Positions 3,560 through 21,194 of a stretch of 46,615 nt of DNA are shown here, one piece after another. Each line of letters starts with the position of its first letter. Position 1 is the first letter of the stretch. A program made the position numbers and the translations under genes. The notes below the pieces were generated by a model. It saw only the letters and a list, made by a program, of their open reading frames with translations. It had not been told where the DNA came from and ran no database searches. Source of the DNA: a virus; IMG/VR virus record IMGVR_UViG_3300029398_000003; one strand, given 5' to 3'.

Positions 3560-4014
3560 GCGGGTTGCAGTCCGATGAACGAGGGGGCGGTGGCGTAGTT
3601 CGCCCCGCTCCCCGTTTCGCTTACACGGAAAAGTTTTATGAAGTGTTCCCCTTCTACTTGGCAATCGGTATGACTGCCGAACAATATTGGGACGGAGATT
3701 GTGAGCTTGTCAGATACTACCGCAAAGCCGCAAAAATCCGGCAAGATTTGAAAAATCAAGATGCGTGGTTGCAAGGAATGTATATCTATCAGGCAATCGG
3801 CAATCTGGCCCCCATCCTCCGAGCTTTTGCGAAAAAAGGCACTAAGGCTGTGCCTTATCCCGATCAGCCGTTTGCGCTGAACACCATGCAGAAGGAGGAA
3901 AAGAAACAGGCCAAACGGGAGAAGCAGGACGAAAAGGCGAAAGCCTATTTCCAAGCATTGGCTATGTCGTTCAATAAGAAATTTCAGGAGAAAGGTGGTG
4001 GCGTAAATGGCTGA
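3215..4014 (+). CDS. Tail assembly chaperone fusion (gpGT-like), made by -1 frameshift at 3529-3535
   Basis: After a -1 slip at G GGA AAC the -1 frame is open (ggg aaa cat gga ctg gac tgc caa ctg gta agc ggg ttg ...) through ORF 3565-4014, which ends inside the tape measure start. Confidence 0.6.
3529..3535 (+). promoter_or_regulatory. Programmed -1 ribosomal frameshift slippery heptamer G GGA AAC
   Basis: Matches X XXY YYZ in the zero frame of ORF 3215-3559, 24 nt before its stop. Confidence 0.6.
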
Positions 4015-7000
4015 TAATGTGGAAATTCAGGGTTTGGAATTTCAAATCCAAGAGAACAGTGCAGGAGCCGTAACCGGACTTGAAAATCTGAAAAAGGCCC
4101 TGAGCGGATTGAAGTCTGTGACCGGCAGCAGCGTCAAGGGGCTTGACAGCACCAGCAAGAGTATTCGGGAATTGAAGAACGCTCTCTCCGGCCTGAACAG
4201 CGGTGATATGTCCCGGAAGTTGACGCAGATTGCCTCCGGCCTGAGAGCATTGGAACAGGTCAGAGGGGTCAAGATTTCCAATTCTATCCTTAATCAGCTT
4301 AACGCTCTCAATGCCGCCCTGAAAAATGTCAGGTGGACGGACGGGGACAAGATCAGAACCCTTGTAGATGGTCTGCGTCCTCTGTCCGAGCTTGGAAGAG
4401 CCAACATGACTTCCTTCATCAATCAACTCGGAAAACTCCCGGCACTGATTGACGAGTTGGAAAAGGCAGATGTTGACAAGTTCACTCGCCAGATGAAGGA
4501 GCTTGCCGCCGCTATGAAGCCTTTTGCAGATGAAATGCAGAAGGTGTCCAATGGATTTTCCGCTTTTCCGTCCAGAATACAGAGGTTGATTGCCAGCACA
4601 GACCGGTACAACAATTCTGTAAACCGGGCTACTACCGGTACTAAAGCGTGGTCTAATGCTCTCGCAGGTATCAAACTTTCCACGGTACTCTACGCCTCTA
4701 ATCGAATTGGTGCCGCACTTGCCGGATATATGTATCAGGCTTCCGAGTGGGAAGGTATCATGTACCGCTTTGGTCGAGCTTTTGGCGAAGAGGCAGAAGA
4801 AAATTACAAGTGGATTAACCGTCTAAACTCTGAGCTGAAAATCAATGTTCAACAGTTCATGCAGTATGCTTCCATCTACGGCACTATGCTGAAAGGCTTC
4901 GGTGTCGCACAGAAGGACGCTGCGGCTATGGCTATGAACTATACCGAGCTGACTTATGATATTTGGGCCGGTTACAACGACATTTACAAGAGTTTTGAAG
5001 ACGCTGCCGTTGCTGTGCGCTCTGCTATTGCCGGTGAGGTTGAACCCATCCGTAGAGCTGGTTTCACCATCGTGGACTCTCAGTTGAAAATCACGGCGGC
5101 AAATTACGGTATTGCGTACAGCACTCAAAGCGCAAGCGAGGAATTGAAGTCCTATCTGCGGTATCTGACCCTGATCGACCAAGCCAAGGCACAGAATTTG
5201 ATTGGCACTTATGCCCGTGAGATGACTACCGCAGAAGGTCTTATGAGAACCCTGCGTCAACAGCTCACCTCTCTATCTCAGGCTTTTGGCTCTTTCCTTC
5301 TTCCTGCTTTGGTGAAGGTTTTACCCTATGTGCAAGCCTTTGTGGAGCTGATTGGGGAAGCGATTGCGGCTCTGGCACAGCTCTTTGGCATTGACTTGAA
5401 GCCTGTTGATTTTGGAGTCAGTTCCGGTGCCTCCGCTGCCGGGGATATGGCTGATAACCTTGGTGACGCTGCGGGTGCCGCAAAGAAGCTGAAACAGTAC
5501 ACCGCTGGTTTTGACGAGCTGAATGTTTTTGACCCTAATCAGGGAGCCGGGGGAGCTGGTGCCGGTGTTTCCGGTGGAGGCTACGAGGGTGAGTTTGACA
5601 TCGGTAAACTGTGGGACGAGAGCATTTTTGAGAACATCAATTCCCAGGTTGACGAACTGAAAGAAAACCTGAAAGGTGTTCTTTCCACTGTGACCAGTAT
5701 TGCGGCGGGTATTTTGGCGTGGAAGGTCGCCAAAGATTTCTTAGCGGCCTTGAAACTTCTGAAAGAACTGAACTCCAAGAATTTTGCCTTCAAACTGGAC
5801 TTCAAAGTTCTCGGCTTGTCCATGTTCCTCGCTGATTTGAAGGAATTTGAAAGGTATCTGAAAGATTTCCTGGACAACGGCCCTACCTTCCAGAATGTTG
5901 CCGGTATGATTAGTTCCTTTGCCGGTATGGTGGGGGACGCTCTGATTATGCTCGGCGGTTTGAAGGTTGGCGGTGCGCTGAAAGTTATTCAGGGTATCGG
6001 TGAGATCGTCATTGGTATCAGCGACATTGCGGAGAATGGTGTCAATGCGGAAAATGCCCTAACTGTCATCCGAGGACTGACTAATATCGCCATTGGTATC
6101 GGCGTGTTTACTGGAAATATCAAGTTGGCGGCATGGAGCGTAGCCATTCAAGGCTTCACCACCATCATCCGTGAGATTGCTACAAATTGGGACGCTATCA
6201 AGCAAGGCGATTGGAGCGGTGTGGACAAGGTGGCTCTGATTATTGGCGGTTTGGAAATCTTGGGCGGTTTGGTAGTCGCTCTTGATGTATTTTCCAAGTT
6301 GAAGGGTATCTCTAACCTGGGCAATGCCACTACCGCTATGAACACACTCTCCAATGCTACGGGAACGATTGATACTACCGTTAGTACCCAGCTCTCCCCC
6401 AAGCTGAAATCTCTGGCGAAGAACCTCGGCCTTGGTGTGGTAGTCATTGCCGAAGTTGCGGCAGCGGCAATTATCTTTACCGGGGCAATCGCCATCATGG
6501 GCCATGAACTCGAAGAAGTTGGTAAAGCGTGGGAACCTGTCATTGAAAACGGAACCACCGTTGCAACTGCAATCGGTATTGGAGCTGGTATCTTGGGTGC
6601 GGTCGGTTTAGCCGCATACGCCTTGGGAACCGGAGGTAAGACCATTGCCTTGAATATCGGCATCGGAACAGCTATCTTACTGGAACTCGGCGTAGCTACC
6701 GGTCTGTTCTTGGTAGAAATTTGGGCCGTAGGTAAGGGGCTTGACGAGATTGGTCAGGCATGGCAACCGGTTTTGGACAACGGCGAAGAGATTGCTACCG
6801 CCATTGGTGTAGGCACCGGCCTTTTGGTTGGCGTAGGTACTGTGACGGCAGCTCTTGGCGCAATCACTATCGGTACGGCGGGGTTGCTTCCTGCGGCAAT
6901 CGCCTTGGGAGCCGGTATTCTGGCAGAAATGGCCCTGGCTTGTATCGGGTTGGTGGAAAGCCTACGAGCTGTTGCGGACGAATTGAACAATAACCTTGCC

Positions 7001-8149
7001 CCCTCTCTCCGGGACTTAAACAGCACTCTTCCCCAGCTTACCGATGATATGTCCGATTTTGTGGATTTCATGTCTACCTTTGCCGGGGAGATCAGTTCCT
7101 ATACTGACTCTATGGGCGGTATCACCTGGGACAGCATTGTAAGCGGCTTCCAGAAGCTCTTTGCCGGTAATCCTATCGGCGATTTCGCTGATGATGTGAA
7201 CGCCATCTACACGGACACTAAGAGCTTGAATGACGAACTGCGGCTTGCAAACCCGGAACTGCAAACCGCTGTAACCCTGCTGACACAGTATGCCGCTCTT
7301 ATGGAGCAGCTTGGTATTCTGACGCAGGAAAACGGCACGGCAAATTTGGCAACTGGTATCTTTACCAATCTGCAAGTCTGCGGTGAGCAGCTTGTGACTG
7401 GCTTCTCCACCGGCATGACGAATAAAATGCCTCTCATTCAAGCCAATGTGGAGCAGATGAAGACCACCCTTGACACCAACTTCAATACGCTGGTAGACGG
7501 GGTTGTGCAGAAGTGGCAGACCGGTTTGGACACCATGAACACGGATTTTACTACTTTCCGCACAAATACGCTTCTCGGCTTCACGGACTTCCAAACGCAG
7601 ATGACCACTGGCATGGACGATTTTACGACCACCTTCCCGAAGGGGTGGAGTTCCATGTGGAGAGGCATGAACAATACCGCTATCATCCAGTGGAACTCTA
7701 CTCTGAACGCAATGGAAAGAGGCATGAACAATGCCATCAACGCACTCAACCAAGTCATTCGCTCTATCAACGCTGTTTCTTGGATTACGGGTATCAGTCT
7801 GAGCTATTTTAGCCGGATTTCCATTGACCAAATCCAGTATATGGCTGAGGGCGGTTTTGTGGATGAAGGGCAGCTCTTCATTGCGAGAGAGGCCGGAGCC
7901 GAGATGGTGGGTGCCATGGGACGGCGTACCGCTGTTGCCAACAATGACCAGATCGTTGAAGGTATTTCCGCTGGTGTGTCCGTTGCTAATGACGGCGTGA
8001 TCGCCGCTATCTATGCACTCATGAATATCATCGAGGACAAGGATTTGTCTGTGTCCATCGGTGATGATGTAATTGGCCGGTCTTATGACCGGTATAACCG
8101 GAGCAGAGGTGTCCGAGTGAACAGTGGTGCCTTTGCCAACGCCTACTAA
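4007..8149 (+). CDS. Tape measure protein
   Basis: 1380 aa with coiled-coil N- and C-terminal parts and a Gly/Ala/Ile-rich hydrophobic central repeat region. Position after the chaperone pair. Confidence 0.9.
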   Translation: MADNVEIQGLEFQIQENSAGAVTGLENLKKALSGLKSVTGSSVKGLDSTSKSIRELKNALSGLNSGDMSRKLTQIASGLRALEQVRGVKISNSILNQLNALNAALKNVRWTDGDKIRTLVDGLRPLSELGRANMTSFINQLGKLPALIDELEKADVDKFTRQMKELAAAMKPFADEMQKVSNGFSAFPSRIQRLIASTDRYNNSVNRATTGTKAWSNALAGIKLSTVLYASNRIGAALAGYMYQASEWEGIMYRFGRAFGEEAEENYKWINRLNSELKINVQQFMQYASIYGTMLKGFGVAQKDAAAMAMNYTELTYDIWAGYNDIYKSFEDAAVAVRSAIAGEVEPIRRAGFTIVDSQLKITAANYGIAYSTQSASEELKSYLRYLTLIDQAKAQNLIGTYAREMTTAEGLMRTLRQQLTSLSQAFGSFLLPALVKVLPYVQAFVELIGEAIAALAQLFGIDLKPVDFGVSSGASAAGDMADNLGDAAGAAKKLKQYTAGFDELNVFDPNQGAGGAGAGVSGGGYEGEFDIGKLWDESIFENINSQVDELKENLKGVLSTVTSIAAGILAWKVAKDFLAALKLLKELNSKNFAFKLDFKVLGLSMFLADLKEFERYLKDFLDNGPTFQNVAGMISSFAGMVGDALIMLGGLKVGGALKVIQGIGEIVIGISDIAENGVNAENALTVIRGLTNIAIGIGVFTGNIKLAAWSVAIQGFTTIIREIATNWDAIKQGDWSGVDKVALIIGGLEILGGLVVALDVFSKLKGISNLGNATTAMNTLSNATGTIDTTVSTQLSPKLKSLAKNLGLGVVVIAEVAAAAIIFTGAIAIMGHELEEVGKAWEPVIENGTTVATAIGIGAGILGAVGLAAYALGTGGKTIALNIGIGTAILLELGVATGLFLVEIWAVGKGLDEIGQAWQPVLDNGEEIATAIGVGTGLLVGVGTVTAALGAITIGTAGLLPAAIALGAGILAEMALACIGLVESLRAVADELNNNLAPSLRDLNSTLPQLTDDMSDFVDFMSTFAGEISSYTDSMGGITWDSIVSGFQKLFAGNPIGDFADDVNAIYTDTKSLNDELRLANPELQTAVTLLTQYAALMEQLGILTQENGTANLATGIFTNLQVCGEQLVTGFSTGMTNKMPLIQANVEQMKTTLDTNFNTLVDGVVQKWQTGLDTMNTDFTTFRTNTLLGFTDFQTQMTTGMDDFTTTFPKGWSSMWRGMNNTAIIQWNSTLNAMERGMNNAINALNQVIRSINAVSWITGISLSYFSRISIDQIQYMAEGGFVDEGQLFIAREAGAEMVGAMGRRTAVANNDQIVEGISAGVSVANDGVIAAIYALMNIIEDKDLSVSIGDDVIGRSYDRYNRSRGVRVNSGAFANAY

Positions 8150-8161
8150 GGGGGTAAGGAT

Positions 8162-8545
8162 ATGGCAGCATTTATCAAGATCAATGGTCGTGAATATCCT
8201 TGCCCCCGCAGAGGGCTTAACCTCATGACCGCTACCATCGTGGACTCCGCCAGAAACGCAAATGCTGTGGTGGTGGGTCAGGTGGTAGGCCGTGAACAGC
8301 AAAAAATCGACAATCTGGAATGGGCTTATCTGACTGCGGAACAGTGGTCGAGCCTGTTGCAAGAATTTAGAAATTTCTATGTGATGGTCACTTACCCGGA
8401 TATGGTGAACAACACATGGACTACCCGGAAGATGTACCCCGGTGACAGAACGGCAGAGCCATTCCATCTTGACCCGGAAACACAGCTTCCCATTGATTAC
8501 ATTAACTGCAAAGTTAATCTCATTGACTGCGGAGAGCCGTTGTAA
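8162..8545 (+). CDS. Small tail component (distal-tail-protein position)
   Basis: 127 aa directly after the tape measure gene. Function inferred from synteny only. Confidence 0.35.
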   Translation: MAAFIKINGREYPCPRRGLNLMTATIVDSARNANAVVVGQVVGREQQKIDNLEWAYLTAEQWSSLLQEFRNFYVMVTYPDMVNNTWTTRKMYPGDRTAEPFHLDPETQLPIDYINCKVNLIDCGEPL

Positions 8546-8557
8546 AGGAGGGCCGAT

Positions 8558-10807
8558 ATGAAATCTGTAAGTAACGCTTACAAGTCGAGTATGCGTGGCC
8601 TCCTTCGCAACCGCTCCTATGTCCGTATTACCTTCGGAAATGTGGACACAACAGCCGCAACAGACGGTGAGTGGGTAAGCAATGGGGAGCTGCCTTTTTC
8701 TGAATTTGAAACGGTAGATTACCCTTATCAGTATGGGAGTCCCTATGCCGTTTTGGAATTAAATAGGTGGGCATTAGATGGTAAAGCTCTCATTCTTCCC
8801 GCCAGTGGAACGGTGCAGGACGGTTTTGTGTCCAGCCTCATGAGTGACGCTGAGGGAGCGTTCAGCACTCCGGCAGTTATTACCCGACAGTTCTCTGCTC
8901 CCCACACCTTCCCCGGTTTGACGCTGACTTTTGATACCCGGTATCAGGAATGGCCCTTACAGATCACCGCAAGGTTTTATCTGAGCAATGCCCTGGTTGA
9001 TACCCAAGTAGTACCTGTGACCGGCGTAGAGGCCGTGGTAAACACGAGAGCGGCCCAGGTAGACAAGGTGACGATCACCTTCGACATGGCTCTTCCATAT
9101 CGGAGGCCCAGGCTGGAAGAGGTTCTATACGGCCTGAACAAGCAATTTGTGAACAAGGATATTATTTCCACTCAGCAAAAGCATGATGTTGACCCTCTGA
9201 GCCGCAGACTGCCAACTGAAACGATGGAGTTCACCATCATTGACTACGAACACAATTATGACCCCGATAATCCGTCTGGCATCTACGCTTATGTGGATAA
9301 GAACTCTCCCATTGAAATCCAATTCGGCTATGAGTTGCCGGACGGCTCTGTGGAGTGGATTAAATCTGACAGGTATGTGCTGAACGGCAAGCCCACTACC
9401 AAGGATAACCAGACAACCTTTACCGGAACCGGCCTGATTGGAAGTCTGACGAAAACCTTCTACAAAAGCAAACTTGGTTCTAAAAGCCTGTTCGCCATGG
9501 CAGAAGAAGTTCTGTTGGACGCTGATTTGACCCTGACGGAACAGGGAACGCACCCGTGGGAGATTGACGAGAGCTTGAAGCAGATGTTCACTACGGCGGC
9601 TCTCCCTATCGACACGCACATGAACTGCTTGCAGTTAATCGCTCATGCGGCCCGTTGCCGCCTGTTTACGGACGATGACAACATCATCCATATCAAACCC
9701 TTTGGTGTGACCGTGACGGGTATTTACAGCGGCCAGTGGGCCGACAACGGCCATCTCTGGTACAGCGAGTGGGGAACGGTGGATAAGGGCAATACCAGCG
9801 AAAACACTTATGCCGTATTTGAGTTGAACCGCTGGACGCTGGACGGCGGCAATCAGGTGATTATCCCTGATGATGACCCCAATGGGAGAGGATATATCAG
9901 CGAAGTCATGACCAATGCGGAAGGGACATTTACAATGGCCCCGGTCTTTACCAAAACCTTTGATGTGTCGCATGACCTTCCTGTGGTCGCTATCCGCTTT
10001 GATACGCCTATGGACGAATATCCCACCTCTATTCAGGTGAAGTATTACAAGGACACTATTCTGCTGGACACACAGACGGTTCCGGTCAATTCAGTGGAGG
10101 TGTTTGTGTCTTCCTCCTTGGCGATTGACTGTACCAAAATTGAGGTGTCTTTTCTGAGCGGACTCCCTTATCGGAGAATGAGGGTTAGTAAGGTTTACTA
10201 CCGGGAAACTGACTTCACTTTGGATTTTTCTTCTATCGCAGAGAATAGTCAGGCGATCTCCAAAATTGACGAGTTAAGAGCTGTCACCGTGGCTCGGTAC
10301 TCCTACGCTGCCAGTGATAGTACCACCAATCTCTACGAGGAAACGACCACCGAAACTGAGCTTCATGTTGAGTTCTCTGGTCTTGCACAAGATATTCAGA
10401 TCAATGTATCTGGCGGAACGCTGGTATCTTCCAACATTTACGCCAGAGCTGCGGATTTGGTGTTATCCTCCGGCACTAAAACCGTAACCATTACCGGACG
10501 GACTTTGCAGGAGAACTCGGTGGTCGTTTCCTACCCCGTAGCTCTCACCGGAGAGGTAGACAAGGAGGAAAATCCCTTAATCACCAATGACAGTATGTGC
10601 CTTGCTCTGGCAAACCATGTAAAGAATTATCTACAAATGCGAAACACCTATGATGCAGATTATCGTGGAAACCCGGAGATGGAGGTAGGCGACATTATTG
10701 GTCTGCAAACCCGATACACCAATGAAATGGACGCTCTGATCTTGGTGGATGAAATCTCCTTTAACGGCTCTCTGAGCGGAAAGATGAAGGTGAAAGGCTT
10801 GATATGA
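8558..10807 (+). CDS. Tail tip / baseplate structural protein with two tandem ~130-aa paralogous modules
   Basis: 749 aa. Two internal copies of a YAV(L/F)ELNRW(A/T)LDG ... LPYRR(P/M)R module at about 8744-9133 and 9809-10205. Confidence 0.55.
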   Translation: MKSVSNAYKSSMRGLLRNRSYVRITFGNVDTTAATDGEWVSNGELPFSEFETVDYPYQYGSPYAVLELNRWALDGKALILPASGTVQDGFVSSLMSDAEGAFSTPAVITRQFSAPHTFPGLTLTFDTRYQEWPLQITARFYLSNALVDTQVVPVTGVEAVVNTRAAQVDKVTITFDMALPYRRPRLEEVLYGLNKQFVNKDIISTQQKHDVDPLSRRLPTETMEFTIIDYEHNYDPDNPSGIYAYVDKNSPIEIQFGYELPDGSVEWIKSDRYVLNGKPTTKDNQTTFTGTGLIGSLTKTFYKSKLGSKSLFAMAEEVLLDADLTLTEQGTHPWEIDESLKQMFTTAALPIDTHMNCLQLIAHAARCRLFTDDDNIIHIKPFGVTVTGIYSGQWADNGHLWYSEWGTVDKGNTSENTYAVFELNRWTLDGGNQVIIPDDDPNGRGYISEVMTNAEGTFTMAPVFTKTFDVSHDLPVVAIRFDTPMDEYPTSIQVKYYKDTILLDTQTVPVNSVEVFVSSSLAIDCTKIEVSFLSGLPYRRMRVSKVYYRETDFTLDFSSIAENSQAISKIDELRAVTVARYSYAASDSTTNLYEETTTETELHVEFSGLAQDIQINVSGGTLVSSNIYARAADLVLSSGTKTVTITGRTLQENSVVVSYPVALTGEVDKEENPLITNDSMCLALANHVKNYLQMRNTYDADYRGNPEMEVGDIIGLQTRYTNEMDALILVDEISFNGSLSGKMKVKGLI

Positions 10808-11292
10808 GTATTATCAATGAGCTTGTCTACAACCGCACACAGGCCGATGTAGACCGGGTTTATACCCTAAAGAACAAAATCCTCACGGGAGGGCTTGCCG
10901 CCCTCACCGCTGAGGAAAAAGCTGAATATCTGGCCGGAATGAAAGGTGCCTATAACTACACGGACTTTAACCGGCTCGGAGAGGCAATCACCTATCTGGT
11001 AGAGCAAATGAAAAAGCTGGACATTCATGATAGCTCCATTGTCCCGAAGGTAGATTGGGCTATGGGAGATACCCCAACCCAGAGTCAGGTAAGAAATCTC
11101 CTGAGCTGCCTGACAAAATTGAGGGCAAAGCTCTCTTTACCGGACAATGCTCCGTCTGTGCCGAACTCTCTGGACAAGTTGACCTATCAAACGGCAAATG
11201 ACATGGAGCTTCTGCTTTGGATGATTGACCAGCGAATTACACAGACAACCGCAGCGTTCCGCTATTCCGGGACGATATATTGTGGACAATAA
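10804..11292 (+). CDS. Hypothetical tail-module protein
   Basis: 162 aa, overlap-coupled to the upstream tail gene. Confidence 0.5.
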   Translation: MSIINELVYNRTQADVDRVYTLKNKILTGGLAALTAEEKAEYLAGMKGAYNYTDFNRLGEAITYLVEQMKKLDIHDSSIVPKVDWAMGDTPTQSQVRNLLSCLTKLRAKLSLPDNAPSVPNSLDKLTYQTANDMELLLWMIDQRITQTTAAFRYSGTIYCGQ

Positions 11293-11307
11293 GGAGGAAC
11301 TTATAGC

Positions 11308-12456
11308 ATGAAAGACACCAGCATCAAGGGCAATGGAAAGTCCAGCATTATCAAAGCCCCTTCTGATATGCCCGAAACCTTTGAAGCATGGCGGGAACAG
11401 CTTCTCGCCGGAGAAGGCTACCTTGATGTGCGGTTGAATACCGATACAACCGGGGAAAACGCCGGGTGCAATGAAATCGGCACCGCTCTGAATAAAGCCA
11501 ATCTGCTGAATGATACCACGAAAGCGGCCTTGGAACTGACCCAGACAGACCCTACGGTAAATGACGCTCTGTATGCCCTAAGTCAGAAGGGTTCTCCCGC
11601 TGAGGTTCATGTGATCGCAGACAACGGAACCCAGGTCACAATGAGTAAGGGGAGTAAAGTCCTAACCGCTCAGGTGTCCAATGGTGAAGCGGTTCTCTAC
11701 CCTGCCGAGTTGGGCGATTGGAGTATTCAGTACATCTTTGGCGGCTCTCAGAAAACTCGGACTTGGACTCTGGAAGTCATTGGTATCGTCTATGTCTATC
11801 CCTTCGAGATCGGAGCTACCCTGAACGATACCGATTGGGAAGATATTGAGATTTGTGGTCGCCTGGGTATGGCGGAAAAATTCTTCAAGGTGGGAGATAC
11901 AAAGACTGTAAACATCGGCGGAACTAACTACGAGGTACAGATTATTGATTTCAACCATGACGATAAAGTATCTGGTGGTAAGGCCCCCATGACATTCCAG
12001 CTTGTGGACTGCCTCAATCAGACGGCACAGATGAATAGCAGTAACACCAATACCGGAGGCTGGAACGGTTCTGCCATGAGAACCAGAATGGCTACCTATA
12101 AAAGCCAACTTCCGGCGGCTCTTCGGAATGTCATCAAGACTGTCAAGAAGAAATCCGGCACCGGTGGCGGAAGTTCCAGCGGTACGCAGACCACCAATGA
12201 TGACCTGTTTCTGCTGTCCGAAATTGAGATTTTTGGCACGACCACTTACTCGGTAGCCGGTGAGGGTACACAGTACGCTTGGTACAAGGCCGGGAACACC
12301 AGAATTAAGAAAGTCAACGGTTCTGCGAACAACTGGTGGGAGCGTTCGCCTTTTAGCGGCAACGCCACCGATTTCTGCTATGTGAACAGTTCGGGGAACG
12401 CCAACTTTAACTTCGCCAACACCTCTTATGGCGTGTCCTTCGGCTTCTGCGTTTAA
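11308..12456 (+). CDS. DGR target protein 1, a putative receptor-binding tail fibre protein with C-terminal variable region VR1
   Basis: 382 aa, last gene of the tail module. The C-terminus NNWWERSPFSGNATDFCYVNSSGNANFNFANTSYGVSFGFCV is encoded by VR1, which matches the TR apart from adenine positions. Confidence 0.85.
   Translation: MKDTSIKGNGKSSIIKAPSDMPETFEAWREQLLAGEGYLDVRLNTDTTGENAGCNEIGTALNKANLLNDTTKAALELTQTDPTVNDALYALSQKGSPAEVHVIADNGTQVTMSKGSKVLTAQVSNGEAVLYPAELGDWSIQYIFGGSQKTRTWTLEVIGIVYVYPFEIGATLNDTDWEDIEICGRLGMAEKFFKVGDTKTVNIGGTNYEVQIIDFNHDDKVSGGKAPMTFQLVDCLNQTAQMNSSNTNTGGWNGSAMRTRMATYKSQLPAALRNVIKTVKKKSGTGGGSSSGTQTTNDDLFLLSEIEIFGTTTYSVAGEGTQYAWYKAGNTRIKKVNGSANNWWERSPFSGNATDFCYVNSSGNANFNFANTSYGVSFGFCV
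12320..12450 (+). repeat. DGR variable repeat VR1
   Basis: 131-bp ungapped alignment to TR 12975-13105 with 13 mismatches, all at TR adenines (for example AAT to TTT, AAC to TTC, ACC to GCC). Confidence 0.9.
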
Positions 12457-12474
12457 TCCAATATCTGCTAAATC

Positions 12475-12492
12475 CCGCCCCGTAAGGGGCGG
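12475..12492 (+). promoter_or_regulatory. GC-rich hairpin (7-bp stem, GTAA loop) 24 nt downstream of VR1. Candidate DGR target-recognition structure.
   Basis: ccgcccc gtaa ggggcgg with no following U-tract. Same sequence class and same spacing as the hairpin after VR2. Confidence 0.6.
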
Positions 12493-12507
12493 TATAGGAG
12501 GGTAATT

Positions 12508-12936
12508 ATGTCAGTCATCAAATCTAAACGGGGAGAAAGCCCAATGCAGTTCATCGAAACTGCAAGAAAACTGGAAGCTCACACTTTTTCCGTTGTCACC
12601 AAGGCTCCTAAGCGGTACGGCCCCTATCTCCTTTACAAGCTCATGGCTCTTGCCACCACGGTTCATGACGAGGTTCGGGCGGCAAACAATATCTATCCGA
12701 GAAACCAGCATGAAGCGCAAATGCGCCGGGACTGCCTGACAAGAGCCAATATTGCCCTCCAAAATCTCAGTCCAAAGCTGACCTTGCTCTATGACGCTAT
12801 TCTTCAAAACCCGGAAAAATGCCCGTGGATTGACCACGCCATGCAGGAGTTCGGAGAGTACATCAAAGAGGAAGCGAAGCTGATCGCAAAAGTGAAGAAA
12901 GCTGACAGCGAGAGGTATAAAGACCTCCCGGTGTAA
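12508..12936 (+). CDS. avd: DGR accessory variability determinant (Avd-like, basic helical protein)
   Basis: 142 aa between the target gene and the TR, the canonical mtd-avd-TR-RT order. Basic and helical, with a KAPKRYG segment resembling IPRKHG of BPP-1 Avd (recalled from memory). Confidence 0.6.
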   Translation: MSVIKSKRGESPMQFIETARKLEAHTFSVVTKAPKRYGPYLLYKLMALATTVHDEVRAANNIYPRNQHEAQMRRDCLTRANIALQNLSPKLTLLYDAILQNPEKCPWIDHAMQEFGEYIKEEAKLIAKVKKADSERYKDLPV

Positions 12937-12974
12937 GTTTTCAGATATGGGTCAAGTCCTGTCATCCGTTTATT

Positions 12975-13105
12975 GTTCTGCGAACAACTGGTGGGAGCGT
13001 TCGCCTAATAGCGGCAACACCAACAATTTCTGCAATGTGAACAGTTCGGGAAACGCCAACAATAACAACGCCAACAACTCTAATGGCGTGTCCTTCGGCT
13101 TCTGC
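12975..13105 (+). repeat. DGR template repeat (TR)
   Basis: Adenine-rich AAC/AAT-codon segment homologous to VR1 (131 bp) and VR2 (116 bp). Homology ends at ttctgc, after which the TR reads aacttcgta and both VRs read gtttaatcc. Confidence 0.9.
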
Positions 13106-13370
13106 AACTTCGTATGGGTCAGTCGTAGTAACCCCGTTGGGTGAAATCAGTACCCTTTGCAGAAGGAGGGCTTGTACCCTGCCGAAAGGCTAAAACTTCC
13201 GGGTATATCGTTTGAAATATACCCTTTCCGGCAACGGGAACTTCCGATGTAGTCAGCCGGACGCTGCTTGCATGGTGAGCGATTGTACGGTAGCTCATTT
13301 CATGGCTGGTACTACTATGCAGTTAGAACCCGTACCCCACAATAATACTGTACGGAGGGAACCCCTTTTT

Positions 13371-14588
13371 ATGACAAGTGAGGAACGAAGGGAAATCCGT
13401 TATCAACGCAGGAAAACAAAGAGGGACGAGGCCCGTCTAAAGCGAAGTATGGCCTGTGGAGATTTTGATGAAGTCTTTTCGTTCCGGCATCTATATCTCT
13501 CTGCGAAAAAGTGCTGTAAAGGAGTGTACTGGAAAAGTTCTACACAAAGATATATCAGCAATCTTATCCCAAATATCTCTGAAACCCTATTATCCCTGAG
13601 AAATGGCACCTTTATTCACCGAGGCTTCCATGAGTTCTACATCATGGAGCGTGGCAAGAAACGGCATATTCGCTCTGTTCATATCTCGGAGCGGACAGTC
13701 CAGAAATGCCTATGTGATTACTGCATTGTGCCAATCTACTCCGCCTCTTTCATCTACGACAACTCCGCCAGTTTGAAGCACCGAGGAATGGACTTTGCCT
13801 TACGGCGGATGGTCTATCACTTGGAACGGCATTTTCGCAAGCATGGTTTGGCTGGTGGCATCTTGATCTATGACTTCAAGAGCTTCTTCGATGACGCTCC
13901 CCATGAACCTCTGCTGGCGGAGGCGGAAAGACGGCTCCACGATGACCGTATTCGGGCTTTACACAACAGCTTCATTGCGGATTTTGGCCCGGTAGGGCTT
14001 GGCCTGGGCAGTCAGATCAGTCAGACAAATGCTCTGTTGCTGCCGAGTCCGCTTGACCATTATTTCAAAGAAGTCCTGGGGATTGAGGGATATGCCCGGT
14101 ATATGGATGACGGCTACGCCATTCATGAAGACCTGGATTATCTAAAGGGCGAATGTATGTTGGGATTGGAAGAGGTCACTCGGCACCTTGGACTCCGGCT
14201 CAACTGGAAGAAAACCAGGGTTGTTCCTCTGGTGGACTTCTACCGATGGTTGAAAACCAAGTTCATCGTCACACCGCAGGGGAAGGTGATCTTGAAGATG
14301 AACCCGGCTTCTACCAAAATCATCCGGCGCAAACTCCGTTCTTTTTACCGAAAATGGCAGATGGATGAAATGGCCCTGGCTGATATTCGCAATTCAGTGG
14401 ACAGCTATAACGGCCACATGATGCGAGGCAATAGTTATAAGGTAAAAGAGCGAACCAATCAGTATTTCAAATCCATGTTTGGTTTCTATCCGAACAAGAA
14501 AGGTTGGGAAAGAAATGTATCGAATGTTCAAAGGAGAAATTGTACTGGCAACAGTTACGAACCCTGTTTGGGTCAAAAAGCAGGATAA
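13371..14588 (+). CDS. DGR reverse transcriptase
   Basis: YMDD catalytic box (YARYMDDGYAI) and an LGLGSQISQ motif, the DGR-type (I/L)GxxxSQ. ATG at 13371 is preceded by ggaggga. The ORF track starts at TTG 13212, but that upstream part is more likely TR-RT spacer RNA. Confidence 0.85.
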   Translation: MTSEERREIRYQRRKTKRDEARLKRSMACGDFDEVFSFRHLYLSAKKCCKGVYWKSSTQRYISNLIPNISETLLSLRNGTFIHRGFHEFYIMERGKKRHIRSVHISERTVQKCLCDYCIVPIYSASFIYDNSASLKHRGMDFALRRMVYHLERHFRKHGLAGGILIYDFKSFFDDAPHEPLLAEAERRLHDDRIRALHNSFIADFGPVGLGLGSQISQTNALLLPSPLDHYFKEVLGIEGYARYMDDGYAIHEDLDYLKGECMLGLEEVTRHLGLRLNWKKTRVVPLVDFYRWLKTKFIVTPQGKVILKMNPASTKIIRRKLRSFYRKWQMDEMALADIRNSVDSYNGHMMRGNSYKVKERTNQYFKSMFGFYPNKKGWERNVSNVQRRNCTGNSYEPCLGQKAG

Positions 14589-14817
14589 CGGCAGCTATGG
14601 CCTGTGTAGTGAGCAAGAGGCTCAGGGTGTCGTGATTGAGGGTACTGTGTACCATGTAGAGGGTAGGGACGAGTTGGACGGTACGGAGAGCGTTATCGTG
14701 ACCGAAATCAGTGAGATTGCCTACCAGAAAGAGCAGGAGGCCATTATTCAGAGAAAAGCGGAGCAGGAGGAAGTAGACGCTATTGCGGCGGCGATTGAGA
14801 GGGGGCTTGCGCTGTGA
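14515..14817 (+). CDS. Hypothetical protein
   Basis: ORF 14479-14817; ATG 14515 is preferred. Overlaps the RT 3' end. Acidic C-terminal part. Confidence 0.4.
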   Translation: MYRMFKGEIVLATVTNPVWVKKQDNGSYGLCSEQEAQGVVIEGTVYHVEGRDELDGTESVIVTEISEIAYQKEQEAIIQRKAEQEEVDAIAAAIERGLAL

Positions 14818-15272
14818 ATAAGAAGATGTTGGACGCTTTGACGAGTGCAATCTATGTGTCGAAGCTAAGTCTGGCTGGGGAAGCAGTGACGGAGGATGAC
14901 CAGAAAATCAGAGCCGCAGGGTTGTACCCCGATTGGGAGGCTGGAAAGCATACCAAGGGTGAAATCTACAATACCCATGCTGGGGACAGCCTGGGAAACG
15001 AGTGGGAACAGACTTGGGAGTGTTATCAGGCTTACGACAATGCCACCTATCCCGGCCTCATTCCCGGCAACTCCTCCTGGTACACCTTCAACCGGCCCCT
15101 GCATGGGAAGACCAAGGAAACGGCCCGTCCCTTTGTCCCTGTTCAGGGAGCGCACGATATGTACCACACTGGTGAGTACATGATCTTCACGGACGGGAAA
15201 GTGTACCGGTGCAAGCAGGACACCAATTTCTCTCCCACCGATTATGCTCAGGCTTGGGAGGTAGTGGAATGA
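14814..15272 (+). CDS. Hypothetical protein with a CBM5/12-like carbohydrate-binding C-terminus
   Basis: 152 aa. The C-terminal YHTGEYMIFTDGKVYRCKQDTNFSPTDYAQAWEVV resembles the aromatic pattern of chitin-binding type-3 (CBM5/12) modules. Confidence 0.35.
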   Translation: MNKKMLDALTSAIYVSKLSLAGEAVTEDDQKIRAAGLYPDWEAGKHTKGEIYNTHAGDSLGNEWEQTWECYQAYDNATYPGLIPGNSSWYTFNRPLHGKTKETARPFVPVQGAHDMYHTGEYMIFTDGKVYRCKQDTNFSPTDYAQAWEVVE

Positions 15273-15910: not shown

Positions 15911-16771
15911 ATGATGAAAGCAACTGAGCTGGTCGACAAGGTCATTGACATTGCAAAGAACGATAAGACACTGTATGTCATGGGGTGTTTTGGAGCACCC
16001 CTGACTGCGGCCAACAAGAAACGGTACACCACCAATCATTCCTACAACAAAGCTGCGGCCCGTGTGAAGATGATTAACGCCGCTTCCGAGGACACCTTTG
16101 GGTTTGACTGCGTATGTCTTATCAAGGGTATTCTGTGGGGCTGGTGCGGCGACAAGAGTAAGACCTACGGAGGGGCGAAGTACGCTTCCAACGGTGTACC
16201 AGACATTGGGGCCGACCAGATGATTACCAAGTGTCCTGACGCTTCTGCCACTGGTTGGGCCGACATGGAACCCGGTGAGGTGGTATGGACTACCGGCCAC
16301 ATCGGTATCTACATCGGTGATGGTCTGGTTGTCGAGTGTACGCCTAAGTGGAAGAACTGTGTGCAGATCACGGCGGTGGGCAACATCGGCCCCAAAGCCG
16401 GGTACAATACCCGCACCTGGAAGAAGCATGGTCACATTCCTTATGTGGAATACGATAAGGTTCCTTCCGTAAAGCCACCTGAGCCTGATACGGTTGTTCC
16501 CGCACCCGTTACCGAGGTCAAGGCCACCGGTACTGCCAAATCCTTTAACAAGGCTGTGGCTGGCTCCTACAAAGTGACAGCAAGCTCCCTGAATGTTCGT
16601 AACGCTGCTGGTACGGAGCATAAGGTTTTGACTACCATTCCGAAAGGAACTGTGGTCAAGAATTATGGTTACTATACGGTGGTCAATGGCGTAAAGTGGC
16701 TCTATGTCAAGTTCACCTACAAGCGAGTGACCTATACCGGGTTCTGTTCTGCGGCCTATTTGAAAAAGTGA
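15911..16771 (+). CDS. Endolysin: NlpC/P60 or CHAP-like cysteine peptidase domain plus C-terminal bacterial SH3 domain
   Basis: Candidate catalytic Cys (FGFDCVCLIKG) and His (TGHIGIYIGDG). The C-terminal YKVTASSLNVRNAAGTEHKVLTTIPKGTVV...WLYV is SH3_3-like. Confidence 0.7.
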   Translation: MMKATELVDKVIDIAKNDKTLYVMGCFGAPLTAANKKRYTTNHSYNKAAARVKMINAASEDTFGFDCVCLIKGILWGWCGDKSKTYGGAKYASNGVPDIGADQMITKCPDASATGWADMEPGEVVWTTGHIGIYIGDGLVVECTPKWKNCVQITAVGNIGPKAGYNTRTWKKHGHIPYVEYDKVPSVKPPEPDTVVPAPVTEVKATGTAKSFNKAVAGSYKVTASSLNVRNAAGTEHKVLTTIPKGTVVKNYGYYTVVNGVKWLYVKFTYKRVTYTGFCSAAYLKK

Positions 16772-17024: not shown

Positions 17025-17228
17025 ATGCAGACATTAAAGGATTTGACGCTGGACAAGCTGATAAATCTCTATGAGGGTGTGGTAGTCCATGACAGAAAAC
17101 AGATTGTGGAATGGGATGGACACCGTGGGACACTTATCTACGAGATCAAGCAACGGACATTGGCGCAGGACAAAATGATTTTGGGTGCGCTGAAATGTGC
17201 CAAAGCGAACGGTTTCACCGGAGAATAA
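17025..17228 (+). CDS. Hypothetical protein
   Basis: 67-aa ORF, last + strand gene before the minus-strand lysogeny module. Confidence 0.4.
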   Translation: MQTLKDLTLDKLINLYEGVVVHDRKQIVEWDGHRGTLIYEIKQRTLAQDKMILGALKCAKANGFTGE

Positions 17229-17232
17229 AGGA

Positions 17233-17270
17233 AGACACCCTCTACCGTTATGGTAAAGGGTGTCTTTTTG
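17233..17270. terminator. Hairpin agacaccct-N15-agggtgtct followed by tttttgttt. Convergent terminator; alternative reading is an attP-type dyad.
   Basis: 9-bp perfect inverted repeat with a T-tract. Overlaps the last codons of the integrase gene. Confidence 0.5.
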
Positions 17271-18903
17271 TTTGAACGAATATCTTTCCCCATACAATGT
17301 AAGGTTCGGATATGCGCTCAATGGTGGACTTTGACCCCTCAAATCCGAACCCCTTCTCGCTGGAAGGGTTTATGCGGAAAGTCTTATTCTTGCAGGAGGT
17401 CAAGTTATATGCTGTCGTAATGCGGAAACCGTCAGGTTCGTCCCATACGGTAACGGAGTTCACCATGAGGTCAATGATAATGCGCCGGTATCTCTCGTCT
17501 TCGATGCGGCCTCCCTTAAACTCGGTCAGCCAGTAGACAATCTGGCTCCGCTCAATTTTACAGACATATTTCTCTTCTTCGGCTAAAAGTCGGAGAAGAT
17601 TTTTCTTTTCTTTCTCCAACTCTACAAGTCGGTTCATAAGAGCGTCAGAGGCAATACCCTTTTCAATGGCATTTGTAATATTGGCAATACCGCTCTCTGT
17701 TTCCTTCATCCGTTCTGTAAGTTCAGGAATACGGGTATTTTCTCGCAAGTCCTGTTCAGTTTGAGAGATCGCCATGTCTGCCAGCTCTTGAATGGTATCA
17801 TCGGTCAGTAACTCCATAGCGTCTTGCGCTACGATATACTCTATCCATTCTTTCTTCAAGGGCTTCTTTTCACAAGCGTGTTTCCGCTTCCTGGTATAAC
17901 AGGTGTAGTAATTGTGGACAGCTCCGGTCTTGCTGGTGCCACTTTCCCCGTTCATAGAGCCTCCACAATGGCCGCAGAAGAGCTTTCCGGCCAAGAGGTA
18001 ATCCACCTTGGCTTTGCCCCTTGCCGGGGCTTCTGCGTTCTTAGAGAGCCTACGGCCCACCGTTTCAAACAGTTCCTTGTCAATGATGGCCGGAACGCCT
18101 CCTTCCATCTCAATATCTTTGTAGGTATAGACCCCGATATATCGTTTATTACGGAACATGGACTTGAAACTATTCCGGTTAAACTCTACTCCCTTGGCTG
18201 TGCGGTAGCCTTTTGCGTTAAACATACGGCAAATATCGGCCACGGTTTCCCCATTGGCATAAAGTTCAAAAGCCTCTTGGACGATATGAGCGGTAGCCGG
18301 ATTGATAACCAGTTTATGATCTTCAATTTTATAGCCGAGAGGAACATGACCTCCTATACTATGGCATTTCAAGGCAGACTCCCTCATACCTCTGGTGATC
18401 TTCTGCGAGAGGTCGGCAGAGTAAAATTCCGCCATACCCTCCAACACAGCTTCAAGAATAATACCCTCCGGTTTCTCAGAAATGTTCTCAGTAGCAGAGA
18501 TGACCTTTACGCCGTTCTTTCTGAGGCGGAATTTGAAAAGTGCGCTATCTGTTCGGTTCCGAGCAAAGCGGTCAAGTTTCCAAACAACCACATACTCCCA
18601 TGGCTTTTTCTCGCTGTCCCGTATCATCTCTTGGAAGTGAACCCGTTTCTCCACATCTTTCCGGGCGGTGGTGGCCCGGTCTACATAGATAGCGGTAATA
18701 CGGTAGCCATTAAGTTTGCAGAAGGTTCGGCAATCACGGAGCTGCCCTTCAATGGATTGTTCCCGTTGCCGCTCGGAGCTGAACCGAAGGTACAACGATA
18801 CATCGGTGTCCCCTTCAAAAAGTGTGGAGGGGTCTTGTCTGAACTGGTCTATTTCCTCTTCGGTCAACATGGAGAGGTCAATGGGGAATTTTGTGATTTT
18901 CAT
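17248..18903 (-). CDS. int: Large serine recombinase (phage integrase)
   Basis: Resolvase-type N-terminal domain (LRFSSERQ, DRFARN), recombinase domain and a Cys-rich zinc ribbon (CGHCGG...YYTCYTRKRKHAC), followed by a coiled-coil C-terminus. Start at 18903 (MKITKF) preferred because of ggaga 8 nt upstream; the ORF track start is 18918. Confidence 0.85.
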   Translation of the reverse strand: MKITKFPIDLSMLTEEEIDQFRQDPSTLFEGDTDVSLYLRFSSERQREQSIEGQLRDCRTFCKLNGYRITAIYVDRATTARKDVEKRVHFQEMIRDSEKKPWEYVVVWKLDRFARNRTDSALFKFRLRKNGVKVISATENISEKPEGIILEAVLEGMAEFYSADLSQKITRGMRESALKCHSIGGHVPLGYKIEDHKLVINPATAHIVQEAFELYANGETVADICRMFNAKGYRTAKGVEFNRNSFKSMFRNKRYIGVYTYKDIEMEGGVPAIIDKELFETVGRRLSKNAEAPARGKAKVDYLLAGKLFCGHCGGSMNGESGTSKTGAVHNYYTCYTRKRKHACEKKPLKKEWIEYIVAQDAMELLTDDTIQELADMAISQTEQDLRENTRIPELTERMKETESGIANITNAIEKGIASDALMNRLVELEKEKKNLLRLLAEEEKYVCKIERSQIVYWLTEFKGGRIEDERYRRIIIDLMVNSVTVWDEPDGFRITTAYNLTSCKNKTFRINPSSEKGFGFEGSKSTIERISEPYIVWGKIFVQTKRHPLP

Positions 18904-18936
18904 AGCGTCTTTCTCCATTCAGACAGGTCGATGACC

Positions 18937-19320
18937 TTAGCCAACAACAGGCTCTTCCGAAGGGTCTGTTTTTTCTTTTGCTGTTCGGTCAAATTCATTC
19001 ATGGCGCATTGAATAATACGCAATTTACCCTCTGCGTCACAAAAAGAAAAGTATCTGAGTAGCCGTTCTTCTAACTCTGACGCGCCGGAAATACTGACCT
19101 TTCCTAAAAGATGATCGACTGAAATATCAAGAAATTCTGCAATTTTAGTAAGCCGTTTCAGATAAGAATTACTTGATTTGTTTTTCCAGTTTGTGAACAT
19201 CTGAGAACTAAAACCAAGATATTCACATAAATCCTTTTGTTCAATTTTCTTGTAATTTAGACAGGCAACAATGTTATCGAGAATAGCTTGCTCTTCGGGA
19301 GTACGATTTACCGTTTTCAT
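18937..19320 (-). CDS. XRE-family HTH repressor (CI-like, no S24 peptidase domain)
   Basis: MKTVNRTPEEQAILDNIVACLNYKKIEQKDLCEYLGFSSQMFTNWKNK is an HTH_3-like motif. ATG at 19320 with ggagg upstream. The longer track ORF (to 19485) would run across the operator/promoter region. Confidence 0.75.
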   Translation of the reverse strand: MKTVNRTPEEQAILDNIVACLNYKKIEQKDLCEYLGFSSQMFTNWKNKSSNSYLKRLTKIAEFLDISVDHLLGKVSISGASELEERLLRYFSFCDAEGKLRIIQCAMNEFDRTAKEKTDPSEEPVVG

Positions 19321-19345
19321 TGTGCGGGCACCTCCTGAAAATAAA

Positions 19346-19419
19346 TCAACAGAAATTGTTGATACCCTATTGACAACAACGATAATCGTTGATATACTCA
19401 TATCAACAACGAAAGTTAT
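19346..19419. promoter_or_regulatory. Lysogeny switch: three 17-bp operators of form TCAAC-N7-GTTGA (19346-19362, 19376-19392, 19403-19419)
   Basis: tcaacagaaattgttga, acaacgataatcgttga and tcaacaacgaaagttat, with centres 30 and 27 bp apart, lying between divergent genes. Confidence 0.65.
19370..19398 (+). promoter_or_regulatory. Rightward early promoter (TTGACA-17-TATACT) whose spacer is exactly operator 2
   Basis: ttgaca acaacgataatcgttga tatact. Shares the extended -35 context ctattgacaac with the promoters at 37748 and 40456. Confidence 0.7.
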
Positions 19420-19597
19420 AAAACAGGCAACAACAATCCGAGGGGTCAAATCTCTTTCTTTGAAAGAAATTCGGCTCCTATGCAAAAATGAAATCTCTAA
19501 TGCTTATTGTTCTGTGGCAAGTCCAGTATAGCATAAGCGATTTTAGTTGACAAGGATTATTTATAACTTTAGTTGTAAATCGAAGAAAGGAGGTCGC

Positions 19598-20067: not shown

Positions 20068-20300
20068 AACGGATATTTGGAACCCTGGCATTTCTCTCCT
20101 TTTTCTGGCTCCTTGGAACGGTTGCCGCTGTTGAGCAAGACATGATGGCTCTTGGCACCGGAACGCTTCACATGGCCTTTGCCCTATTCCTCTTCTATGT
20201 CTTTTGTAAACTGGCCGGAGCGTTTTATCCTACGCAGAAAAGGAAAAGCCGCAGACGGGAGTGCAGTCCCATCCACGGCAAGCGTAAAAGCTCAATCTGA
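20064..20300 (+). CDS. Small two-TM membrane protein with a basic tail
   Basis: FGTLAFLSFFWLLGTVAAV and MAFALFLFYVFCKLAGAF helices followed by KRKSRRRE. Confidence 0.45.
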   Translation: MKRIFGTLAFLSFFWLLGTVAAVEQDMMALGTGTLHMAFALFLFYVFCKLAGAFYPTQKRKSRRRECSPIHGKRKSSI

Positions 20301-20340: not shown

Positions 20341-21156
20341 ATGGATAAGAATGTATTTTCTCAGCTTGCGGCTGAGTTTGACCGCATGGAGCGGACGATC
20401 ACCTACCAAAAGGAAGTCATTTCCACCATGCAGAAGACCCCTACTTGCTCCTGTTGCAAGGTTCCCGCAGATGGCCGGATTTACACCCTTCCCGAACTCC
20501 CGAAGATGAAGCTGGACGATTGCTCTTGGGCTGAAATCGCTATGTATGCTCAGTCTGGCATGGCTGATAAGGTGTTTGCTCAGGGCGATACCAAAAAATT
20601 CACCCTGTCTAATGGCACAGTTATGTCGGCCCGTATCATCGACTTCAATCACGATACGGATAAAGAGAATAATATCCTGCCCATCACCTTTGAAACGGTA
20701 GAAACCCTCAATGATGACTTTCAGATGAACCCTGAGTACACCAACAAGGGCGGCTGGCAAAATTCTCAGCTTCGCAAGGTTCTGAACAATTCCGTCATCG
20801 AAATGCTTCCTGCTGATCTTCGGAAGGTCATCAAGCCCTGTTTGAAGAAGACGAGTTTGGGCGGAAATAGTGAGAAGTACGGCCTGACTTCTGACCCTCT
20901 GTTTGTTCTGTCCGAGCAGGAAATTTTTGGTCGAAAGATTTACTCCCATGGTGGCGAGGGGCATTGGTATGGCTGGTATCGCCAGGAGAATACCGAGTAC
21001 GGAAAGTGCAAGCAGAACGGTGAGCGGGATTGGCGGTGGGAGCGTTCGCCTCTTAGCGGCGGCACCAACAATTTCTGCAATGTGGACGGTTCGGGCAGCG
21101 CCTACAGTAACTCCGCCAACTACTCTTATGGCGTGTCCTTCGGCTTCTGCGTTTAA
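20341..21156 (+). CDS. DGR target protein 2, a paralogue of the target-1 C-terminal half, carrying VR2
   Basis: 271 aa. Shares IIDFNHD, GGW.(G/N)S, LP..LR.VIK, LSE.EIFG and WERSP...GVSFGFCV with target 1. No signal peptide seen. Located in the early operon. Confidence 0.8.
   Translation: MDKNVFSQLAAEFDRMERTITYQKEVISTMQKTPTCSCCKVPADGRIYTLPELPKMKLDDCSWAEIAMYAQSGMADKVFAQGDTKKFTLSNGTVMSARIIDFNHDTDKENNILPITFETVETLNDDFQMNPEYTNKGGWQNSQLRKVLNNSVIEMLPADLRKVIKPCLKKTSLGGNSEKYGLTSDPLFVLSEQEIFGRKIYSHGGEGHWYGWYRQENTEYGKCKQNGERDWRWERSPLSGGTNNFCNVDGSGSAYSNSANYSYGVSFGFCV
21035..21150 (+). repeat. DGR variable repeat VR2 (remote)
   Basis: 116-bp ungapped alignment to TR 12990-13105 with 14 mismatches, all at TR adenines. 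The 3' flank gtttaatcc is identical to that of VR1. Confidence 0.9.
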
Positions 21157-21174: not shown

Positions 21175-21194
21175 CCCGCCCCGGAAGGGGCGGG
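21175..21194 (+). promoter_or_regulatory. GC-rich hairpin (8-bp stem, GGAA loop) 24 nt downstream of VR2
   Basis: cccgcccc ggaa ggggcggg, at the same distance from the VR end as the VR1 hairpin. Confidence 0.6.

Follow-up and report, generated by a model that had tools for sequence, protein, structure and literature searches.

The viral stretch IMGVR_UViG_3300029398_000003 of IMG/VR (46,615 nt, hereafter the window, meaning the whole stretch that was analysed) carries a 131-nt non-coding sequence that is repeated, imperfectly, at the end of a tail gene and is followed by an open reading frame (ORF) for a reverse transcriptase (RT). The question raised by this locus is whether it is an intact diversity-generating retroelement (DGR), in which a template repeat (TR) is copied into a variable repeat (VR) with changes at adenines, and which genes such an element would diversify. 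We are highly confident that it is an intact phage DGR with one template and two targets, one closing the tail module and one lying far outside it.

One template repeat and two variable repeats

The cassette has the order target gene, Avd-like gene, TR and RT gene, and is located at the end of the tail module. The second target gene lies downstream.

11308..12456, plus strand: target gene 1 (the 'large' target), an ORF of 382 aa, last gene of the tail module, with a C-terminal DUF6273 domain
12320..12450, plus strand: VR1, codons 338-381 of the 382 of target gene 1
12508..12936, plus strand: Avd-like accessory gene, 142 aa, pI 9.3, modelled as a four-helix bundle
12975..13105, plus strand: TR, non-coding, between the avd-like gene and the RT gene
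13114..13378, plus strand: structured spacer RNA, Rfam RF03077 (RT-2 RNA), matched over the full length, with 42 nt inserted
13371..14588, plus strand: RT assigned to the DGR, 405 aa from ATG 13371, with YMDD and LGSQISQ
20341..21156, plus strand: target gene 2 (the 'small' target), 271 aa, encoded in the early operon and paralogous to target 1 (DUF6273)
21035..21150, plus strand: VR2, matching TR 12990-13105, codons 232-270 of the 271 of target gene 2

VR1 and TR form the only long direct repeat reported by a repeat search (131 nt, ungapped, 90% identical, 655 nt apart). Compared base by base they differ at 13 positions, and all 13 are adenines in TR and T, G or C in VR1. As TR has 37 A in 131 nt, the hypergeometric probability of this outcome is 1.2e-8. 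Read in the frame of the VR, TR contains 16 AAC or AAT (AAY) codons. A first-pass annotation made from the sequence letters had described this ungapped alignment and its 13 adenine mismatches, and re-alignment reproduced them exactly, together with its codon examples (AAT to TTT, ACC to GCC, AAC to ACC or TTC, AAT to GAT or TAT). It had also named the last tail gene as the target, and target 1 indeed follows the tape measure and tail genes and closes the tail module. Its reading of adenine-directed mutagenic retrohoming is thus supported, as there are no non-adenine mismatches. It had called the element complete, which is right for the target-avd-TR-RT cassette but left out the second target with VR2; an adenine-free 21-mer, the hairpins after the VRs and the identity of the spacer RNA were absent from it as well.

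VR2 is a 116-nt match to TR in which all 14 mismatches fall on TR adenines (p = 2e-9), so that for both VRs pooled the count is 27 of 27. Between VR1 and VR2 there are 17 differences, each opposite a TR adenine. The two target proteins share 46% identity across 228 aa (E 6e-58) and both end in DUF6273 (Pfam PF19789, residues 240-381, E 1.2e-18 in target 1; E 8e-13, C-terminal, in target 2). Target gene 2 comes after the integrase and repressor genes, outside the structural module, and VR2 is 8 kb from TR in the circular form and ~38 kb in the prophage. A search for additional VRs or DUF6273 genes elsewhere in the window found none.

Turnover of the variable repeats among related phages

Comparison with related genomes shows in which direction the information has moved. 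Among six related phages, 35 of the 131 VR1 columns are variable and 33 of these are opposite TR adenines. The two exceptions (12375 and 12426) show the base to which TR has changed, at a non-adenine, in their own genome (C>T in L066, T>C in L026). Because these non-adenine TR changes recur in the VR of the same genome, they are direct evidence of TR-to-VR copying in this lineage. One relative (L069, 97.5% identical) has lost four TR adenines to G, C, T and T, and its VR1 has the same four bases. This may be erosion of TR that narrows the repertoire or VR-to-TR conversion. The TR of this relative is 9291-9421 of IMGVR_UViG_3300045988_073649, and the lost adenines correspond to window positions 13053, 13058, 13062 and 13082.

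For the closest comparison we used the window and two relatives that are 96-97% identical. Variable columns make up 22% of VR1, against 1-4% of the flanking genes and 3.8% of TR (5 of 131), so the expectation of the first-pass annotation that VR varies while TR is conserved was borne out. About 29 of the 34 variable columns of VR2 (21035-21150) are at TR adenines. The same pattern is seen at the population scale. All 116 orthologues of target 1 are 382 aa long and 84-94% identical, with entropy averaging 0.075 bits upstream of the VR and 1.10 bits within it; 16 positions exceed 1.5 bits, and they are exactly the 16 TR AAY codons and no others. Homologues of target 2 are more divergent overall, with 1.6-3.3 bits at the 14 AAY positions of VR2 and 0.1-0.3 bits at scaffold residues. 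To judge from the genomes compared, mutagenic retrohoming appears to be ongoing, with VR turning over and TR conserved.

The orthologues of target 1 are mostly found in single-member clusters (P0121-P0240; 84-88% identity, all 382 aa), and the VR alone splits them when clustering is done at 90% identity. Such VR-driven splitting is a possible database-level signature for DGR targets.

The reverse transcriptase

We take ATG 13371 and not TTG 13212 as the probable start of the RT, because homologues align from its residue 1 and the RT-2 RNA fills the sequence upstream. The YMDD and LGxxxSQ motifs noted at first pass are present, the latter as LGSQISQ. When the RT was compared with all PDB sequences, just two RT matches were obtained at E <10. 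The best and sole significant one is 8ub7_A, the RT of a Bordetella phage DGR (E 2.4e-13), and the second is the group II intron RT GsI-IIC (E 0.14); no retron RT among the PDB sequences matched. The entry 8ub7 was recognised as a DGR ribonucleoprotein by its title. In the alignment with 8ub7_A, LGSQISQ pairs with IGSLTSQ (pattern xGxxxSQ) and YMDD with YMDD. The RT further matches PHROG 1423 (E 3e-62), and its closest named phage relative in GenBank by tblastn is that of Roseburia phage Shimadzu (44.6% identity), followed by matches in Faecalibacterium, Bordetella, Bacteroides and Vibrio phages. By sequence comparison, the RT belongs with DGR RTs and not with those of group II introns, retrons or defence systems, which agrees with the placement proposed at first pass.

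Other RT classes were tried as candidates and rejected. The NCBIfam group II intron model TIGR04416 gave E 3e-13 but 49.6 bits against a cutoff of 300, and no RNA of a group II intron was detected there by Rfam across the window. The generic RT model of PADLOC scored 57 bits and its DRT matches at most 31 bits, while NCBIfam Drt3a scored 19 bits against a cutoff of 200. No retron RNA was found in the window with Rfam.

The Avd-like protein

Between target and TR the first-pass annotation had seen a basic, helical, Avd-like gene of 142 aa, a description that fits the pI of 9.3 and the four-helix model. Its product has marginal matches to PHROG 3206, 'Avd protein of DGR' (E 9e-4), and to the annotated Avd of Shimadzu, which has the same gene position (BLASTP E 4e-4). 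The AlphaFold2 (AF2) model consists of four helices with a predicted local distance difference test score (pLDDT) of 79. Its top match in Foldseek is 8ub7_B, the Avd chain (template modelling (TM) scores 0.64/0.73), and 2gsc was matched as well (TM 0.67/0.80). Pfam and NCBIfam gave nothing for this protein, and phmmer and profile searches of the PDB returned chance matches only. Since fold, synteny and several weak sequence lines all agree, we accept 12508..12936 as a predicted Avd gene.

The RNA between template repeat and reverse transcriptase

The spacer between TR and RT matches the Rfam RT-2 RNA over the complete model (positions 1-222 of 222) and scores 152.9 bits where the gathering threshold is 40 (E 3e-38), and none of its 265 columns varies in the closest comparison. 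In Shimadzu, and at 12 of the 13 genome loci retrieved with the RT, RT-2 lies directly 5' of the RT gene. For Shimadzu and 10 of these loci, TR ends 1-12 nt 5' of RT-2 and differs from a nearby VR almost only at adenines; counting the window, RT-2 comes after TR in 12 DGRs. The paper that defined the RT motifs tied only RT-10 to a DGR, that of BPP-1, and speculated that others act in further DGRs (PMC5737381). By analogy with BPP-1, RT-2 RNA may prime cDNA synthesis. The 3' strand of its closing helix (…ACGGAGG, 13345-13378) overlaps the Shine-Dalgarno sequence GGAGGG of the RT, which is 7-8 nt before ATG 13371, and folding of RT-2 could affect RT translation.

Sequence elements at the ends of the repeats

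Three further elements occur at or just beyond the 3' ends of the repeats.

12430..12450 (VR1 3' end), 13085-13105 (TR) and 21130-21150 (VR2), plus strand: adenine-free 21-nt block GGCGTGTCCTTCGGCTTCTGC, resembling an initiation of mutagenic homing (IMH) element
12475..12492, plus strand: GC-rich hairpin or cruciform after VR1, 7-bp stem CCGCCCC/GGGGCGG, loop GTAA, 24 nt beyond the VR
21175..21194, plus strand: GC-rich hairpin or cruciform after VR2, 8-bp stem, loop GGAA, 24 nt beyond the VR

The 21-mer is present in three exact copies in the window, where none is expected, and is identical in TR and both VRs; at least 120 IMG/VR stretches contain it exactly. As it has no adenine it would be copied faithfully, and it could provide 3' homology when cDNA is integrated. 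Directly 3' of it TR continues with AACTTCGTA..., whereas both VRs continue with GTTTAATCC....

Folded as single-stranded DNA, the VR1 hairpin has -10.3 kcal/mol (z -3.3) and the VR2 hairpin -11.8 kcal/mol (z -2.8), and DNA folding found no comparable hairpin 3' of TR. Neither VR hairpin is followed by a T-run, so they are unlike terminators. The family was surveyed in 120 VR-downstream regions (loci L001-L120 and the window): in 115 of the 120 VR-type occurrences of the 21-mer, a GC stem of 7-8 bp closed by a 4-nt loop of the form G-N-N-A follows at a distance of 24-30 nt. One variant had a compensatory change in the stem (CCGCTCC/GGAGCGG), and the loops were GTCA 65 times, GGAA 28 times, GTTA 12 times and GTAA 8 times. 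Homing in BPP-1 was shown experimentally to require a hairpin with a GC stem of 7-10 bp and a 4-nt loop, 4-34 bp from the VR (PMC3240598). The VR hairpins fit this published homing element, except that most loops of the family are GYNA and not GRNA. An Rfam match to frnS on the minus strand (12470-12575), over the VR1 hairpin, was below threshold (31.8 bits against 60) and was treated as chance.

Target proteins and their possible roles

In the AF2 model of target 2, residues 55-190 are predicted with confidence, but pLDDT is below 50 in the VR. No usable match for it came from Foldseek in the PDB or from searching PDB sequences with a profile, and matches in BFVD were limited to other DUF6273 and 'tail-collar fibre' proteins. 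The diversified surfaces may bind a host receptor, as is suggested for target 1 by its gene position and DUF6273 homology.

The place of target 2 in the genome allows another, more speculative proposal. The protein lacks a signal peptide and has an N-terminal helix and a Cys-rich linker, and its gene, directly after those of integrase and repressor, stands at the head of the replication operon. It might be an early-expressed or lysogeny-proximal cytoplasmic diversified binder and not a virion receptor-binding protein, with RT-2 as the priming and regulatory RNA of this DGR clade whose closing helix masks the ribosome-binding site of the RT; taken as a whole we consider this unlikely. If target 2 were cytoplasmic, a single DGR would serve adsorption and also an unrelated role, intracellular or non-structural, and would act in trans across ~38 kb in the prophage.

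Proposed mechanism and alternative explanations

We propose that the RT and the Avd-like protein would jointly bind a transcript spanning TR and the RT-2 spacer RNA; that the two proteins form a complex is inferred from analogy with BPP-1. The RT would then make cDNA from TR, misincorporating opposite adenines, and this cDNA would substitute for VR1 or VR2. Targeting would be guided by the shared adenine-free 21-nt block and by the GC hairpin with its 4-nt loop, and since the hairpin follows the VRs and is absent after TR, transfer would be one-way. The expected outcome is randomisation of 16 AAY codons in target 1 (~10^19 variants) and 14 in target 2 (~10^16) with retention of the scaffold residues.

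Several points weigh against an intact and active DGR of this design. Firstly, the Avd call is statistically weak (PHROG E 9e-4, Foldseek E 0.23, nothing in Pfam); the Foldseek value is poor, as helical bundles lead one to expect, and four-helix bundles are common. A C-type-lectin fold of the variable domain was not recovered; pLDDT is low in the VR and the Foldseek search of the PDB came back empty. TR and the VRs share their last 21 nt exactly; the repeat itself therefore lacks an IMH/IMH* difference, and directionality must depend on sequence beyond it. The VR1 loop GTAA and most loops of the family (GTCA, GTTA) deviate from the published GRNA, GYNA being commoner. Lastly, the evidence for activity in this phage consists of genome comparisons and one genome sequence, and in a relative system, that of phage Lelie, read-level variation was absent in culture (PMC11792537). 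This last point could imply a fossil element, whose VRs were diversified in the past and whose differences are now simply inherited with an inactive cassette. The absence of read-level VR variation in cultures of Faecalibacterium phages CP11 and Lagaffe_CP as well (PMC11792537), and the four TR adenines missing from L069, would suit it. However, the RT ORF with its YMDD and LGxxxSQ is intact, TR still has its 37 adenines and 16 AAY codons, the avd gene, spacer RNA and hairpins are intact and highly conserved, and very different VRs in genomes that are 96-97% identical indicate recent turnover, which makes a dead cassette very unlikely.

That the DGR is real but VR1 its sole live target, with VR2 a recombination relic from the target gene of another phage that receives no cDNA, could be argued from the shorter length of VR2 (116 nt) and from its position outside the structural module, 8 kb (circular) or ~38 kb (prophage) from TR. 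Yet VR2 retains the exact 21-mer, the GTTTAATCC that follows it and the hairpin, and adenine specificity extends to its 14 of 14 mismatches and to ~29 of the 34 columns that vary in close relatives. Among homologues the AAY positions have the highest entropy within VR2, and signals of activity at two VRs have been reported in the related groups CP11 and Lagaffe_CP (PMC11792537), so that we regard a silent VR2 as very unlikely. Almost no weight is left for an origin by ordinary duplication or gene conversion of paralogous C-termini plus a pseudogene fragment, next to an RT from an unrelated element such as a group II intron, a retron or a defence system. The two targets are true paralogues, the NCBIfam group II intron RT model does match at E 3e-13 and there are weak PADLOC defence RT matches, but neither duplication nor conversion would be expected to confine 27 of 27 mismatches to a single base in one of the two partners. 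Moreover, at 49.6 bits the group II model stays far under its cutoff of 300, Rfam gave the DGR-linked RT-2 RNA and no group II intron or retron RNA, and the sole significant solved RT relative is a DGR RT.

Comparison with known systems

The intact two-target DGR that we prefer resembles the BPP-1 system (mtd-avd-TR-brt) in its order of target, avd, TR, spacer RNA and RT, in mismatches between TR and VR that fall only on adenines, within AAY codons at the 3' end of a gene of the tail module, and in a GC hairpin 3' of the VR whose loop has 4 nt (PMC3240598). The solved bRT (8ub7_A) aligns with the RT, and the Avd-like model superposes on 8ub7_B. It differs in that BPP-1 has one target and this phage two, and the DUF6273 targets have no detectable sequence similarity to Mtd. 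The spacer RNA is RT-10 in BPP-1 and Rfam RT-2 here. IMH and IMH* differ in BPP-1, whereas here TR and VRs end in the same 21 nt, and the VR1 loop is GTAA. Moreover, this is a siphovirus-type phage of a Gram-positive anaerobe host lineage (Oscillospiraceae).

Roseburia phage Shimadzu (LR596903) has the same succession of tail fibre, Avd, TR, RT-2 RNA and RT, then lysis genes and integrase. Its DGR is reported, as cited in PMC11792537, to diversify a tail protein and another protein whose function is unknown; a second VR was not found within the 25-kb Shimadzu stretch. It is a myovirus with sheath and baseplate genes, its Avd is 24% identical to the Avd-like protein, and there is no similarity at the nucleotide level. 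The Faecalibacterium phages Lelie/Toutatis and CP11 share one TR with two VRs, large and small DUF6273 targets with a C-terminal VR, and a phiC31-type serine integrase (PMC11792537), and CP11 shows cross-genome spikes of adenine-specific variation at both VRs (PMC11792537). Their RTs are only ~29% identical to the one described here, there is no nucleotide similarity, and the likely host family differs, being Oscillospiraceae for this phage. Two-target DGRs were also described in the gut virome members nd4 and nd12, where target 2 has DUF6273 as its only domain, is 234-294 aa long and carries its VR at the 3' end (PMC10743442); it was modelled there with a C-type lectin fold (PMC10743442). The RT of nd12 is 32% identical. 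Target 1 of nd4/nd12 is a tentaclin (N-terminal C-lec and Ig domains, 5' VR), whereas both targets here have DUF6273 and 3' VRs.

The two-target DUF6273 architecture has thus already been described in Faecalibacterium and Roseburia phages, and knowledge of how DGRs work is unchanged by this finding. Our additions are modest. They comprise a second target far from the cassette and not in the structural module, a link between the orphan Rfam family RT-2 and the TR-RT spacer of this DGR clade, and hairpin statistics for the whole family, in which the loops of VR-proximal hairpins are mostly GYNA against the published GRNA. As a clean, intact two-target DGR in a complete temperate gut phage with hundreds of comparable natural relatives, the element can serve as a reference case, and as a population-scale display of DUF6273 in which randomisation is confined to AAY-encoded residues.

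Genome and gene context

An exact 99-nt direct terminal repeat (window 1-99 and 46517-46615) indicates that the window is a complete phage genome of ~46.5 kb, terminally redundant or circularly assembled. Besides the DGR it contains the following genes.

42461-45672: terminase and portal
71-1102: major head protein, with connector genes next
from 2751: major tail protein
4007-8149: tape measure gene
8162-11292: tail genes, between the tape measure gene and target gene 1
15911-16771: endolysin, with the lysis genes, 3' of the TR/RT cassette
17248-18918, minus strand: serine integrase
18937-19485, minus strand: repressor
rightward early operon: small ORFs, target 2, Holliday-junction resolvase, helicase and DNA polymerase

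The annotated genes of the window include no sheath gene, and the phage is therefore siphovirus-type. It is a temperate phage of a gut Clostridia lineage (Oscillospiraceae-type), and Oscillospiraceae is the likely host family. Megablast of 11000-15000 and of 1-25000 against GenBank phages gave short fragments only, of 75-78% identity; by sequence searches a close GenBank relative is absent, while IMG/VR relatives number in the hundreds.

Prophage homology in an Oscillospiraceae genome (L122) and in a metagenome-assembled genome of Candidatus Heteroscillospira (L124) breaks off at window position 17329, and TR and VR2 would therefore be ~38 kb apart when integrated. A relative whose RT is 81% identical is carried by Oscillospiraceae bacterium CM18GR_63. 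The sequence at the break is …CAATGGTGGAC followed by TTTGACC, and it adjoins the 3' end of tRNA-Ala in L122 and of tRNA-Val in L124. This breakpoint is probably the attP core. It lies ~80 nt inside the int ORF (17248-18918, minus strand), in the region 17227-17335 at the 3' end of that ORF, so integration would alter the C-terminus of the integrase.

In the 440-nt gap 5' of target 2 there is a strong terminator-like hairpin on the minus strand (20248-20279, 13-bp stem and T-run), and a convincing minus-strand gene was not found to the right of it. ORF 26883-28397 (plus strand, 504 aa) has a radical-SAM-type PHROG match over residues 11-238 (E 6e-68) and an Erf-like ssDNA-annealing match over residues 269-499 (E 4e-19), and it is either an unusual fusion or two genes taken as one. 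The interval between RT and lysis genes holds two small ORFs with no assigned function, 14479-14817 (likely ATG 14515) and 14814-15272. The former overlaps the poorly conserved final 25-35 residues of the RT, and the 3' end of the Shimadzu RT is likewise overlapped by a small ORF.

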